This document shows, piece after piece, positions 2,183 to 37,612 of a DNA stretch of 64,000 nt (its first letter is position 1; every line of letters starts with the position of its first letter). The notes beneath the pieces are model-generated. The model had not been told where the DNA came from, did not search any database, and saw only the letters and a program-made list of their open reading frames with translations. The stretch is from an uncultured Nitrososphaerales archaeon. Its GTDB lineage: Archaea; Thermoproteota; Nitrososphaeria; Nitrososphaerales; Nitrososphaeraceae. The position numbers and the translations under genes were made by a program. Location: positions 128,001-192,000 of the forward strand of contig CAWJCY010000006.1 in the NCBI GenBank assembly GCA_963841565.1, read 5' to 3'.

Positions 2183-2491
2183 GCATATATCTATACTTTA
2201 CGAGCGTCAACTGGATCTAGTTCGTTATCAAGCATGGACGGTCAAGGCGCAAGGGCAAAAAAAGACTATCGATTTAGGCTTGTTGATTGAGTTGAATACC
2301 TTTGATAAGCAAGTATTCTGAAAGAATATTCACTAACGCGCGAGTAACCAATCATACTCCGTTTGTTAATACTGATAAATAGTGTTGGATTGATGTTGAA
2401 TTAAGCCAATTAGTCCAAATCTTTCACGAGTATGAAAATGATCGTGATGTTTCCTTCCATATTCACAACTTTTAGCTGGAATTTGGACTAG

Positions 2492-2577
2492 AGGTGGGGA
2501 AGGGATTCGAACCCTTATTGATTCGCTTACTACATTCAATTCTGCAGGCGAACGCATAGCCGCTCTGCCACCCCACC
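2492..2577 (-). tRNA. tRNA-Cys(GCA) with 14-nt canonical intron (2528-2541)
   Basis: Minus strand: acceptor GGTGGGG/CCCCACC, discriminator U, anticodon stem TTCGC/GCGAA, loop CT-GCA-G[AATTGAATGTAGTA]A, T arm AAGGG-TTCGAAT-CCCTT. Confidence 0.95.
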
Positions 2578-32088: not shown

Positions 32089-32172
32089 GCGGGGGTCGCC
32101 TAGCCTGGTAGGGCGTGGGATTGCTAATCCCATGTTCGCAAGAACTCGTGGGTTCGAATCCCACTCCCCGCG
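32089..32172 (+). tRNA. tRNA-Ser(GCT)
   Basis: GCGGGGG/TCCCCGC acceptor, anticodon stem TGGGA-TTGCTAA-TCCCA, long variable arm, GTGGG-TTCGAAT-CCCAC, discriminator G. Confidence 0.96.
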
Positions 32173-32695
32173 CTATTGCGGTTTGCATTATTGCAGTGCT
32201 TCCTAAGTCTTAACATGAAGTCTAAATCCATCCCCAGTCAAGATAGCAAAGGGCAAGGCATATTGAAAATTTCTTCCAAGGGATCACATAATTAGCTTAG
32301 GACCGGATGTAATCTCTTTAGAGCTTCTCTCATATACCATGGTATTTACTGATTGCTTTTGAAGGCCTTAAATTGGGTACATCGTTACATCTAATGGTAA
32401 CCCTATAGTTAGCATATACACTGAGCACCAGTAAGGTGATGATCGAATCTCACTGACTCCTTTGGAAGACAATTAACGTGAAGTCATTCTAATTTTATTG
32501 TTAGTCAATGTTTTTTTATTGTTAGTCAATGTTTTATTGTTGTTTACCTCGGTGCAGGTTTTTCATTGAGTTTCACCATAAGGATTTATAGGGCTTATAT
32601 GGGTGTATCCTGCAACAGTAATAGTACAGTCTCACTCCCTAAATATCGGGCATTGTTTAAATACTCAAACACTGCAATACAATTAACGAGAAGGG

Positions 32696-33492: not shown

Positions 33493-34215
33493 ATGCATTA
33501 CTGGGTGGGTTCACATTGTCTTGTCACGGATAGCGAGAAGGGTAATTCGAAGAAGATTAGATCCTTCTTCCCATTGGGAGTAATATCTGTCGCAGACAGA
33601 ATTACAATCGTTAGTGAGATGGTGAATAACATTCCCGACAAATCATGGATGCTCTATCTCTTGGAAATTTTTAACACGCAGGACATCGCATTAGAACTAA
33701 ACCTCATCTGCCAATTCGACGGTCAGGACTATTTTGAGGCGATATTTCGAGGAGTTAATCAGTATAGGTTCGTGCACGTTCTTCCAGTTATTGGTCACAC
33801 TTACAATCGCCAGATATTTCTTGGTTCTCAGAAACAAATAATCAGATACGCTTTGACAGATAAAGAAACTGGACAAAATGAAACCTACGACCTCTCTGCG
33901 AAGAATGTCGCTGGATTTGATTTTCGAGGCTCAAGACAATTCACAGGAATAGAATGGTGGAATAAAATGAAGAATTCACCATATCCAATAAAGTATGAAG
34001 TAGAAATTTCCCAGTTATTGTTTGGACTTAGTGATAATTCTTCCGATGCATATTCAACTACCTTCTATCCCTATAACGCCTTGCTGCCTAATGACGATGG
34101 CTCAAGGGCCTTGTATCCCGTTTCGATGCAAAACCTGAAAATCAAAGATGATGGGTGTATATCTTATCATATTACTTCTGGTAGCTGCGGTACAGGGATA
34201 CGCTACGGCTGCTGA
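33493..34215 (+). CDS. Hypothetical protein (beta-rich)
   Basis: 240-aa ATG ORF with TATA-like ttaaata about 25 nt upstream. Confidence 0.7.
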   Translation: MHYWVGSHCLVTDSEKGNSKKIRSFFPLGVISVADRITIVSEMVNNIPDKSWMLYLLEIFNTQDIALELNLICQFDGQDYFEAIFRGVNQYRFVHVLPVIGHTYNRQIFLGSQKQIIRYALTDKETGQNETYDLSAKNVAGFDFRGSRQFTGIEWWNKMKNSPYPIKYEVEISQLLFGLSDNSSDAYSTTFYPYNALLPNDDGSRALYPVSMQNLKIKDDGCISYHITSGSCGTGIRYGC

Positions 34216-34259: not shown

Positions 34260-34859
34260 TTACTCCATAAAGTCAAGACATACTACGTAAAGCTCGCTGC
34301 TTTCCTGTCTGCTGGCAGGAGGCTTGCTAAGCTTTACTAAAGCAAAGTGCTCCGCAAGCTCGTCTACAAAGGATCGTGTTGAAATACCCTGAAAAATCTT
34401 ATAAACAGCATTTCCGCCACCCTCGAGGATTTTTGTAGAGACATGTAGGGCATGCTTCGTAAGAGAAATTTGTCTTTCATGATCAATTTCCCAAATTCCA
34501 CTTACGTTGGGTGACATGTCACTAAGCACAACATCAAATTTTTCACCAGGGCCAATAGTTTGGAGAAGAATTTGAGTTAGTTGCGGATCGTCTATACTTC
34601 CCTGGATAAATCTTGTGCCCGCCAACGGACTTATTTCCTTAAGATCCATTCCCAAAACAAAACCGGATTGACCGACTAATTGACTTACCACCTGAATCCA
34701 CCCCCCTGGTGCGCAACCAAATTCAACCACTTTATCAGATTTCTTGATTATTTTGTAAGACTTGTTGAGCTGAAGGAGTTTGAAGGCAGCCCTACTACGA
34801 TATCCTTTCTGTTTTGCTAATTTCCTATATTGATCTTTCTTGGCTTTGGTCAGCTTCAT
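34260..34859 (-). CDS. rlmE: 23S rRNA 2'-O-methyltransferase RlmE/FtsJ
   Basis: YRSRAAFKL, GCAPGGW, DVVLSDMSPN.SG, KP.ASR.ESSE.Y. Confidence 0.95.
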   Translation of the reverse strand: MKLTKAKKDQYRKLAKQKGYRSRAAFKLLQLNKSYKIIKKSDKVVEFGCAPGGWIQVVSQLVGQSGFVLGMDLKEISPLAGTRFIQGSIDDPQLTQILLQTIGPGEKFDVVLSDMSPNVSGIWEIDHERQISLTKHALHVSTKILEGGGNAVYKIFQGISTRSFVDELAEHFALVKLSKPPASRQESSELYVVCLDFME

Positions 34860-35284
34860 TATATTATGATGTTAGAGAATCAAAGCATGTACAAGAATAT
34901 AATTGATGCTGTCCCAAAGATGTAAAAACATGACAATACATGATACAGTTAAAGCAATCAAAAGTAGAAAGCGTTTGTTTACCTAATCCGACAGATTGGT
35001 CTCTCCAACGGTAATCTTATTAATCAATATTAAGTCGTTGTGATGCAGATTCAATACTGAACTAATAGTACCCAAGTCAACTACATTACTTGAATGCATT
35101 AACCTAACGAACTCAACCTAAAAATCTGGTTCGGCATTAAACATCTAAAAATCATGAATGCAGGATTCACCAAACAGATTTGAAATGCTTGAATGAAAAG
35201 AGTACGCCGCTATCTTGGAGAAAAATATCAAAATTACACCATAGTGAATTATGTGTCATCTAAGCCGATTATTCAGCTATAATC

Positions 35285-35590
35285 TCAAACGTTATTAAGA
35301 TAACCATCCTGTTGTAATTTCTCCGCATGCGCTCTAATATACCTCCATACTACGTCTGCTTTTGACGCTTGAAAATCCCATGGAGCTACCAAAACAACAT
35401 CATTATCTCTAATCCACATTCTTCTCTTTATTTTTCCACTAATACGACATACTCTTACCTGTCCATCTGTACACTTGACGACCACATTGTCTCCACCTAC
35501 GAGCTTAATAACCCTGCCCAGTAACTGTCCATCCTGTGGAAGAACCAATTCCTTCAAATGAGATTCGCTCAGTACTTTCCTTTTGCCTAT
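35285..35590 (-). CDS. eif1a: Translation initiation factor aIF-1A; probable ATA start
   Basis: GRV..LVGG...V.C.DG..R.CRI.GK..RR.WI...D.VLV.PWDFQ..KAD; GKRKV N-terminus begins at ATA 35588-35590 with an in-frame TAG 4 codons upstream. Confidence 0.93.
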   Translation of the reverse strand: MGKRKVLSESHLKELVLPQDGQLLGRVIKLVGGDNVVVKCTDGQVRVCRISGKIKRRMWIRDNDVVLVAPWDFQASKADVVWRYIRAHAEKLQQDGYLNNV

Positions 35591-36189
35591 TTTTAAGACC
35601 TACCTATATTACCCCGGCGAACATGTAATAAAAACGTATCATTTAAGGGAAAAGCATATCAGGTTTGGGATAAAACTTGGCTATAGAAAGAATTGCCGAC
35701 TATTACTTTTAATAAGAGATATCCTGTTCTGGTAATAATACTGAGCTAATTTATTTACGGAAAATAGTAATAAAAATACATTGACTGTATTGCTTCAACC
35801 TCCTTAGTAATGACTCTATAAATACCTTGTAAGAAGTCTCATGTTTTAAAGTAATGTGTATACCAAGATTTCTTCCTACATCCTCAAAGACCGCCGCAAT
35901 GGATAGCAGTCTAGATATTCTATATTTCCTATAGACAATAAGCTAGATAAAAAAATTGTATATAGAAAAAAGTATCGATTGTATTTTTCATTCTATTTAT
36001 TTTAAGAAACAATTTAGAAACGGTCAAAATATCTCGAACGCCTCTAACTCTTGTGAATCTCATTTTGCACCAAATTATTTCTGCATCTATTCTCACAACC
36101 GGCGTGATATAATTTCAAAGATCGTTACTGCATATTGCACCCTTACTTCCATTGTTTCACCTTAGCTGTAAAATATTACAGCGATCTAG

Positions 36190-36459
36190 TTAATCTTCCA
36201 CTTTCATATTGTCCATTGGTATCATTCTTTCCATACCACTATAAAGCTCTAGATATCTTTCGCCTTTATGAGTTATCTGATATGTTTTTCTATCTTCATC
36301 ATATTTCACAAGCCCATTATCTAACAATTCTGCAAGATATTCCCTCAATTGATTGGTTGACAAATACGCTTTAAACATGATCTTCGTCTTACTCGTCCCT
36401 CTACCTTGAGCAGCTTCCAAGATCATCGCAATAATGTCATTTCTAGCCCTATTCTTCAC
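36190..36459 (-). CDS. Winged-helix transcriptional regulator (HTH_45 type)
   Basis: R.R.DIIA.IL.AA...KTKIMFKAYLS..QL.EYL..L...GL. Confidence 0.85.
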   Translation of the reverse strand: MKNRARNDIIAMILEAAQGRGTSKTKIMFKAYLSTNQLREYLAELLDNGLVKYDEDRKTYQITHKGERYLELYSGMERMIPMDNMKVED

Positions 36460-37039: not shown

Positions 37040-37612
37040 ATGCCACAGCCTCACTTCACAGATGGAAATCTCATTATTCTCTTTGGTGTACATACTGAGG
37101 GCGAGGCAGCTGAAACTGTTCCAAATTATGTCGAAGAACGAATAAAAGTCTGTGTTGATTTGTATCGTATTGTTACGACTTCTAAGCCTGATCGTAACAA
37201 TACGCTGATACTAGTCGTTGTGGACACCAGCACTGGCTTGGCCATAAAAAAGATGCTAGTTGAAGGTGGAATTAAAGAAGATCTAATATTATTTGCTGAC
37301 TCGCCTAGGACCGTCGAGCAATCATTTGATTATGTGCTCAGATTCATAAAAAAGCGGGCGAATCCCCCGTATATGTACTTCGTTGGATCGGTGTGGCAAA
37401 AGGATATTTATGATTCCGCCATTCTTTCACAAATGAAAGATTATCAGGTAAGATTTGAAGGTGCTCCAGACCACAGACCAGTGGATAGTGTCGCCAGAGA
37501 AAAAGCACTGAACACACCAACAAGAGGTATTGGATATTACAAAGACAAACTAAAGAATAAAGCCGTCGACATGGTTATCAACTACGTATTTCCCGATGAT
37601 AAGAATAAGTAG
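37040..37612 (+). CDS. Hypothetical protein, weakly YdcF/DUF218-like
   Basis: IILFG...ERI...DLY, IKKMLVEGGIKEDLILFADSPRTVEQ pattern. Confidence 0.6.
   Translation: MPQPHFTDGNLIILFGVHTEGEAAETVPNYVEERIKVCVDLYRIVTTSKPDRNNTLILVVVDTSTGLAIKKMLVEGGIKEDLILFADSPRTVEQSFDYVLRFIKKRANPPYMYFVGSVWQKDIYDSAILSQMKDYQVRFEGAPDHRPVDSVAREKALNTPTRGIGYYKDKLKNKAVDMVINYVFPDDKNK

Follow-up and report, generated by a model that had tools for sequence, protein, structure and literature searches.

The window analyzed here, a 64,000-nucleotide stretch of contig CAWJCY010000006.1 from an uncultured archaeon of the family Nitrososphaeraceae (order Nitrososphaerales), carries on its minus strand a gene for archaeal translation initiation factor 1A (aIF1A), the coding sequence of which very probably begins at ATA. 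This sequence occupies 35285..35590 and comprises 101 codons counted from the ATA, followed by a TGA stop codon at 35287-35285. Its translation matches Pfam family PF01176 (eIF-1a) over residues 21-83 (E 2.4e-21; 75.6 bits against a cut-off of 30.2) and aligns with relatives over residues 1-101; the database relatives carry the name translation initiation factor 1A, and the product is e/aIF1A, the eukaryotic and archaeal initiation factor with an S1-like OB fold. The 101-residue protein is alignable from residue 1 throughout in 60 related genomes, and its basic N-terminal tail is kept, with G2, K3, K5, V6, E9, and L12 invariant in a 29-sequence alignment across the order. The eukaryotic counterpart of this N-terminus touches the codon-anticodon duplex. 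The source genome (2.05 Mb, 88% complete) holds a single copy of aIF1A, which stands alone: a winged-helix gene ends ~600 nt upstream, and an FtsJ-type methyltransferase gene starts ~425 nt downstream.

Read along the minus strand, the 5′ end of the gene runs from an in-frame TAG (35602-35600) through GTC TTA AAA to the ATA (35590-35588) and on through GGC AAA AGG AAA GTA CTG AGC GAA TCT CAT TTG, which from the ATA translates as I-GKRKVLSESHL. The TAG, four codons upstream, closes the frame, and the three codons that separate it from the ATA include no canonical start (ATG, GTG, or TTG), just as a preliminary description of this DNA had read; what that description said of the sequence is correct throughout. 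It had also placed a Shine-Dalgarno (SD)-like motif and a TATA-like box ahead of the ATA, and both could be located, the former as AGGTAGGT at 35605-35598 (minus strand) with a 7-nt spacer, and the latter as TTTTTATTA at 35634-35626 (minus strand). The mechanical list of open reading frames (ORFs) begins the gene at a TTG (35557-35555, minus strand) and gives it 90 aa; this triplet is codon 12 (Leu) of aIF1A counted from the ATA and is not conserved as a start, and a start there removes 11 residues, cutting into the N-terminal tail as had been pointed out.

The ATA recurs in DNA from two independent studies. DNA contigs of two runs from different studies (X2 and X6) span 35100-35900 and are identical to the window at 35588-35590, which argues, at the level of assembled contigs rather than raw reads, that the codon is real. 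A contig of a second, 90%-like strain in X2 keeps the ATA and has CTG in place of the TTG at 35557. Both DNA runs differ from the window 3′ of the stop codon, at 35145 (C>A), 35266 (one base absent), and 35267 (G>A); these changes in the 3′ untranslated region are either a strain difference or a small assembly error.

Start codons of aIF1A among relatives

To place the ATA among its orthologs, family loci were pooled and duplicates removed, leaving 102 distinct Nitrososphaeraceae sequences; at the orthologous codon TTA stands in 71, ATA in 31, and a canonical start in none. The 30 same-family loci that were fetched all have ATA (14) or TTA (16) at the codon aligned to residue 1, one of the TTA loci lying within the same genus, and ten further family loci divide evenly (5 ATA, 5 TTA). 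The best 80 of 585 relatives, scanned as one genome per species, have TTA in 61 cases and ATA in 19; nearly all are named Nitrososphaeraceae, Nitrososphaera, Ca. Nitrosocosmicus, or Ca. Nitrosopolaris. A pattern search of 131 family genomes with 2 mismatches allowed was noisy, and its aIF1A rows, among the matches listed (150 of 562), were all ATA or TTA. One locus (L010) comes from an unpublished genome (G013), and the conclusions are independent of it. The codon pattern in Nitrososphaeraceae is WTA (W = A or T), mostly TTA, a triplet that differs from AUG at two positions and is absent from the start codons given for translation table 11. Alignment of the relatives, which the preliminary description had proposed as a check, bears out a conserved non-ATG codon: they carry ATA or TTA, not ATG. 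This family-wide pattern, together with the contigs of two studies, rules out a sequencing error or a private mutation.

Beyond Nitrososphaeraceae, the 26 loci drawn from 18 further families of the order carry ATG (14), TTG (6), ATA (4), TTA (1), or ATC (1) at the aligned codon, with GGN AAR MGN AAR GTN next, and in other orders of the class 13 loci carry ATG (7), GTG (2), or TTG (4). The MGKRKV N-terminus given for thaumarchaeal aIF1A in the preliminary description is recovered in these alignments, as ATG or TTG ahead of GGN AAR MGN AAR GTN in other families of the order. In an order-wide pattern search of 401 genomes, the matches listed (150 of 332) include ATG, TTG, or GTG in the large families and ATA, TTA, or ATC in five other small families, one of which has three genera with ATC, ATC, ATA and ATA ×2. 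Two rows of this search, an ATC in G362 and a TTA in G045, are probably other genes; in G045, the protein search places aIF1A at another locus than the TTA row. The families of G043 and G037 are represented by a single genome each.

Because other families and orders have ATG, TTG, or GTG at the same codon before the same G-K-R-K-V, the ancestral state is a canonical start at this exact codon, with WTA derived. On a weakly resolved single-protein tree, the families with non-canonical codons do not form one clade, and at least three state changes are needed.

Another large family of the order (L186-L192, L196, L197, L201) has a TTG start for aIF1A in 9 of 10 loci, and the loci inspected by eye carry a ATTATATA-type box ending ~23 nt upstream; mRNAs from such genes would be leaderless or near-leaderless and UUG-initiated. 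Among the matches listed, TTG is dominant in a second large family too. Since TTG prevails in these two further large families, aIF1A seems to lean toward weaker starts across the whole order.

Several genera of Nitrososphaeraceae hold at least two aIF1A copies, as a rule an ATA copy alongside a TTA copy (G025, G026, G029, G411, G418, G419, G425, G429). In G029 there are, in addition, two open frames of 82 codons whose match is confined to residues 22-98 and which are thus without the basic tail. ATG-led frames starting M-R-K-R-K-V-L occur in some genomes of the family (G027:C3:10755, G025:C50:9536, G029:C105:2930, G421, and others); those of G025 and G029 were not recovered as aIF1A by the protein search.

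Translation start and selection on the start codon

Translation very likely starts at the WTA codon, as judged from how the surrounding sequence evolves. Residues 2-16 change synonymously (GGC/T/A, AAA/G, AGG/AGA/CGN, GTA/G/C/T, CTG/TTG/CTA/CTC). In 89 of the 102 family sequences, the stretch from the nearest upstream in-frame stop to codon 1 is free of canonical starts, and in 51 of the 102 that stop is only 2-6 codons away; the upstream in-frame canonical codons of the 13 exceptions fall at scattered positions. Downstream, the position of the first canonical codon varies among relatives between codons 6 and 58. As a general solution, a start at the TTG of 35557 or at some other canonical codon was rejected, the TTG being CTG in the second strain and the downstream canonical codons not being conserved.

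Selection on the codon was examined on a maximum-likelihood tree of 100 full-length family sequences, built with the start codon left out and with a total length of 11 substitutions per site. The first base of codon 1 undergoes 7 parsimony changes, all between A and T, and the second and third bases undergo none, the third being A in 100 of 100 sequences. On the same tree, the seven third positions of the gene that are strictly twofold A/G synonymous sites undergo 9, 10, 12, 13, 13, 15, and 16 changes, so that an unconstrained A/G site would be expected to change about a dozen times. Purifying selection on the third-position A is supported by this comparison, and it is highly probable that the weak start codon is maintained by selection; G is excluded at the third base, and ATG and TTG therefore appear to be selected against. 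T and C at this base are likewise unseen in the family. Conservation of the codon, its orthology to canonical starts, and selection on its third base together support initiation at the ATA, which the preliminary description had put forward.

Database models of the gene disagree with one another. The 120 best database proteins comprise 74 that extend farther upstream, 19 that are truncated, and 27 that start one residue before GK[RK]KV; TTA genes are extended upstream in the database models among the examples compared with their DNA. In a few NCBI metagenome-genome records the protein opens with MGKKKV or MGKRKV, which would fit a pipeline that takes ATA as a start. With 74 of 120 best entries extended and 19 truncated, the aIF1A models of this globally abundant group of soil nitrifiers appear to be mostly wrong at the N-terminus.

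Initiation signals and the decoding machinery

In the profile of 102 upstream regions, the SD-like motif has a conserved core of G-10 (84 sequences), G-9 (80), and T-8 (86). The spacer that separates it from the ATA (35591..35597, minus strand) has conserved T-6 (96) and T-5 (86), a purine at -3 in 101 of 102 and A at -2 in 100 of 102, after which comes W-T-A-G-G. The 16S rRNA of the source genome ends in GGATCACCTCCT, and the two SD variants, GAGGT at 7 nt from the codon and GTGAT at 5 nt from it, fit one pairing register on the 16S 3′ end; the motif is complementary to that end, 5-7 nt from the codon, and in register. Mean predicted SD duplex energies, which are descriptive and uncorrected for relatedness, are -7.0 kcal/mol for ATA and -7.3 kcal/mol for TTA in the family, -7.1 kcal/mol for ATA in other families, -6.4 kcal/mol for TTG, -3.9 kcal/mol for ATG, and -4.3 kcal/mol for shuffled controls. 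By these predictions, the weaker the start codon, the better the SD.

A purine at -3 is also present in 5 of 6 non-canonical loci outside Nitrososphaeraceae, and in canonical-start aIF1A genes of other families this position, inspected by eye, varies. The -3 purine and the invariant +4 G at WTA resemble the eukaryotic start context, in which a purine at -3 and G at +4 are the rule.

The TATA-box-like TTTTTATTA has its 3′ end 35 nt before the ATA, and over the 102 sequences a T-rich promoter box is conserved at -42..-33. Passages of one study of archaeal promoters (PMC6028130) place the box of leaderless genes ~22-26 nt before the start codon. The aIF1A box, at 35 nt here and the same in the family, departs from this leaderless arrangement, and from the usual archaeal box spacing the aIF1A leader would be ~10-13 nt. 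Promoter-box distances of 479 ATG starts in the source genome are broad, with no sharp leaderless peak, and cannot calibrate leader length; the start-context profile of 165 inferred starts is very noisy.

The RNAalifold consensus was empty for -14..+46, -14..+76, and -30..+46, giving no conserved RNA structure around the start, and 34800-36300 has no Rfam match at E up to 1. A sigma-70/terminator scan, a type unsuited to archaea, returned nothing relevant. Termination-reinitiation through the TAG contained in WTAG, or an upstream ORF (uORF) using it, was considered and rejected: there is no uORF, and in that +1 frame a stop lies two codons upstream. Entry by recoding or coupling was likewise set aside, there being no conserved upstream canonical start and the upstream region being conserved as a nucleotide motif rather than as codons.

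The gene specificity of the start was assessed by comparing all stop-to-stop frames of the source genome with 400 kb of a complete genome from another genus of the family, which yielded 222 non-overlapping conserved pairs. In this test, which is blind where a canonical codon closely follows by chance, only for aIF1A are 12 or more conserved codons present ahead of the first canonical start in each of the two genomes. Of four lesser flags, two were pairs whose canonical ATG/TTG starts align, one was probably an antisense shadow, and one came from a weak N-terminal extension of the alignment. Genome-wide, the start-region motif precedes a long frame at aIF1A only. An SD scan for other WTA starts across the genome was uninformative, since SD enrichment is weak even at ATG. 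The gene for aIF1 (SUI1) has an ATG start directly after a stop.

The initiator tRNA of the source genome has A1:U72, the GGG/CCC stem, and a CAT anticodon, and an identical anticodon stem-loop was seen in 33 of 36 family genomes as well as in genomes from five families with canonical starts. Only the standard three CAT-anticodon tRNA genes turned up in the 88%-complete genome, namely the initiator and two G1-type elongator-like genes that are taken to be Met and Ile2. A lineage-wide alteration of initiation decoding is not indicated by the single case among 222 ORF pairs, the CAT anticodon, and the standard stem-loop, with base modifications being invisible in DNA. The initiator tRNA gene itself (GGGCTCATAACCC; G000:C6 ~85,150-85,330, minus strand, outside the window) is apparently interrupted at two places outside the anticodon loop, and ARAGORN misses it even with intron search.

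Possible feedback on aIF1A and competing explanations

We propose, tentatively and as the leading reading, that aIF1A synthesis is subject to feedback through initiation stringency. The aIF1A mRNA would be a short-leader, monocistronic transcript on which the SD-like GGT core, ~7 nt upstream, sets the 30S P site on AUA here and on UUA in most of the family, and the ordinary initiator tRNA (anticodon CAU) would read WUA as a near-cognate codon. Selection appears to hold A and forbid G at the third base, keeping a deliberately poor start codon behind a good SD, and aIF1A synthesis would then depend on the stringency of aIF1, aIF1A, and aIF2 against near-cognate codons. High stringency would yield less aIF1A and low stringency more, closing a homeostatic loop of the kind described for infC (AUU) and eIF1 (poor-context AUG). 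We place falling synthesis at rising stringency in the lead because self-repression by IF3 and eIF1 and start discrimination by aIF1 are precedents: passages of PMC3326321 describe IF3 as repressing the AUU start of its gene and eIF1 as doing so at the poor-context AUG that begins its own, and parts of two other reports (PMC6237735, PMC8211752) describe discrimination by Sulfolobus aIF1 against non-canonical starts.

The closest bacterial likeness is infC, which encodes IF3. As portrayed in sections of PMC3326321 and PMC5499595, it too is an initiation-factor gene with a non-canonical start (AUU/AUC) conserved across a large group and a functional SD, and its product also belongs to the machinery that judges start codons. 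A conserved non-canonical start of the infC/eIF1 type is what we find for aIF1A, with WTA in 102 of 102 sequences. The two differ in codon (AUU/AUC versus AUA/UUA), and repression by the product, shown for infC, is a proposal for aIF1A; the infC trait is also near-universal, whereas that of aIF1A is confined to some families of one archaeal order and derived from canonical ancestors. In function, IF3 corresponds to aIF1 rather than to aIF1A; the homologue of aIF1A in bacteria is IF1 (infA), and no start-codon control of infA is known to us.

In eukaryotes, eIF1 (poor-context AUG) and eIF5 (uORF) share homologous machinery with aIF1A, and a suboptimal start reads out stringency there (portions of PMC3326321 and PMC6237735). 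Those systems scan, however, whereas aIF1A combines SD positioning with a true non-AUG codon rather than a poor-context AUG; moreover, it is eIF1 that carries the poor start site in eukaryotes, whereas aIF1 of the source genome has a plain ATG. Start-site autoregulation of eukaryotic eIF1A is not known to us, and nothing of the kind surfaced in literature searches. Streptomyces sigR, with a GTC start repressed by IF3 (PMC5472188), likewise pairs a highly unusual start on a regulatory gene with fidelity control, but it is a bacterial sigma factor gene with another codon. Organellar and Mycoplasma-type codes accept ATA and TTA as starts, as seems to occur at aIF1A, but they do so genome-wide through an altered tRNA or code, whereas aIF1A is one gene served by a standard CAT initiator tRNA.

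Searches for a TTA or UUA start codon returned only mitochondrial-genome or mitogenomic papers, judged by their titles. In Haloferax, according to parts of PMC7261190, ~30% of putative alternative initiation sites are near-cognate codons, which were set aside. Searches of openly available full texts turned up no account of aIF1A starting at a non-canonical codon, nor of an archaeal initiation factor controlled through its start codon. Start-codon feedback is textbook for IF3 and known for eIF1 and eIF5, and no archaeal or e/aIF1A-family parallel was found in the literature searched. A regulatory reading of the WTA start seems reasonable to us, and aIF1A would then represent start-site control of an initiation-factor gene in a factor family and domain for which we found no earlier description, and with a codon, UUA, that is not known to us as a start in a free-living cell.

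Several points weigh against the proposed feedback. Contigs of RNA libraries cover only 35221-35354 and 35430-35580 at this locus, leaving 35581-35612 uncovered, and are therefore silent on the 5′ end. The 102 sequences are related to one another, so that their counts overstate independence, and resolution of the single-gene tree is poor. In yeast, suboptimal start sites are favored by the basic N-terminal tail of eIF1A (PMC5756025), and any aIF1A feedback could accordingly be negative, positive, or exerted via aIF1. On infA mRNA in E. coli extracts, an AUA start performs like AUG and UUG and shows little IF3 effect (portions of PMC5499595), and AUA may not be weak at all. UUA has two mismatches to the CAU anticodon, and for a factor made in abundance its decoding as an ordinary near-cognate codon ought to be very inefficient. 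Finally, ATT and ATC are found in 0 of 102 family sequences, which is unexpected if any weak codon serves a stringency sensor; their absence suggests that A is specifically required at position 3, a requirement that could reflect either A:C34 as the best-tolerated mismatch or special decoding.

A farther-reaching interpretation, which we regard as possible but doubtful, holds that an essential, abundant factor is translated from UUA in Nitrososphaeraceae via a dedicated W-U-A initiation mode, acting as an archaeal "fidelity thermostat". The strict W-U-A with its -3 purine, -2 A, and +4 G would define this mode, in which an SD-anchored 30S subunit on a ~12-nt leader would accept the A:C34 third-position pair only if aIF1/aIF1A occupancy permits. 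Such a thermostat would have evolved at least three times, or repeatedly reverted, within the ammonia-oxidizing archaea.

The same conservation could arise if the gene had acquired a strong promoter and SD and its poor start codon merely set a constitutive output level, with aIF1A not sensing its own level. This dosage tuning without feedback, which we consider somewhat unlikely, accommodates the covariation of codon weakness with SD strength (ATG -3.9, TTG -6.4, WTA about -7 kcal/mol), selection against a canonical start, and the lack of any conserved regulatory RNA structure or Rfam match. There are, however, many other ways to set dosage, such as a weaker SD or promoter, and over 11 substitutions per site a turnover of solutions would be expected; instead, a strong SD with WTA is fixed in 102 of 102 sequences, and the feature occurs in only this one of 222 ORF pairs, a gene whose product itself belongs to the start-codon selection machinery. 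A conditional or feed-forward switch, as opposed to negative autoregulation, is a distinctly improbable alternative, in which WTA initiation rises when fidelity falls (low aIF1, stress, temperature, nutrients) or is promoted by the basic tail of aIF1A; the output of aIF1A would in that case report or amplify physiological state. Parts of two studies lend it some substance, in that the eIF1A N-terminal tail stabilizes the closed complex and favors suboptimal sites (PMC5756025) and non-AUG mRNAs in E. coli extracts respond differently to temperature, nutrients, and ppGpp (PMC5499595). The archaeal tail GKRKV is invariant, moreover, and the pairing of one ATA with one TTA copy in several genera suggests graded outputs, but a positive loop acting on so essential and abundant a factor would need a further brake to be stable.

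Special decoding, whether by a tRNA or modified base that pairs with A at position 3 while first-position A/U wobble is tolerated, or by initiation without P-site decoding, would have precedents of a sort in the agmatidine-type C34 of archaea and the f5C34 of mitochondria, both of which read AUA. WTA mirrors WTG exactly, with position 2 fixed, position 1 A or U (7 switches), and position 3 strictly A; neither ATT nor ATC appears among the 102 family sequences, and the double-mismatch UUA is the majority form. We nevertheless judge it very unlikely: the CAT-anticodon tRNA genes of the 88%-complete genome are the standard three only, the initiator anticodon stem-loop is the same in canonical-start families, ATC occurs in one family of the order, and a decoding change should act genome-wide, whereas one gene among 222 ORF pairs is affected. 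Slimmest of all is the chance that translation begins elsewhere, at a downstream canonical codon (here TTG 35557) or an upstream one, or that the 5′ part is a nucleotide-level element. Gene callers do choose such starts, as the 74 extended, 19 truncated, and 27 one-residue-earlier models among 120 attest, and 13 of 102 sequences have some upstream in-frame canonical codon. Truncation, however, would lose the invariant G2, K3, K5, V6, and E9, residues that evolve by synonymous change, and the downstream canonical codons, spread over codons 6 to 58, are unconserved, the TTG being CTG in a co-occurring strain; upstream frames are shut within 2-6 codons in 51 of 102, their canonical codons are scattered, and there is neither a uORF nor a conserved structure.

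If the fidelity-thermostat reading is true, the e/aIF1A family, and archaea altogether, would gain their first described device of that kind at a start codon. Initiation at UUA would add this codon to the starts used by a free-living cell, as a cellular, non-organellar start two mismatches from AUG. A family-wide, apparently selected AUA/UUA start on aIF1A would in addition amount to a natural experiment on how the eukaryote-like archaeal initiation complex judges codons, and existing reconstituted archaeal systems suit experiments on it.

Elsewhere around the locus, the flanking ORFs at 33493-34215 (plus strand, 240 aa) and 37040-37612 (plus strand, 190 aa) have no Pfam matches at E up to 0.01. 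The window also contains two tRNA-Ser(GCT) calls, at 2491-2577 (minus strand) and 32089-32173 (plus strand); the former is unassignable, with a four-letter anticodon (gcag), when intron search is off and becomes Ser(GCT) when it is on.

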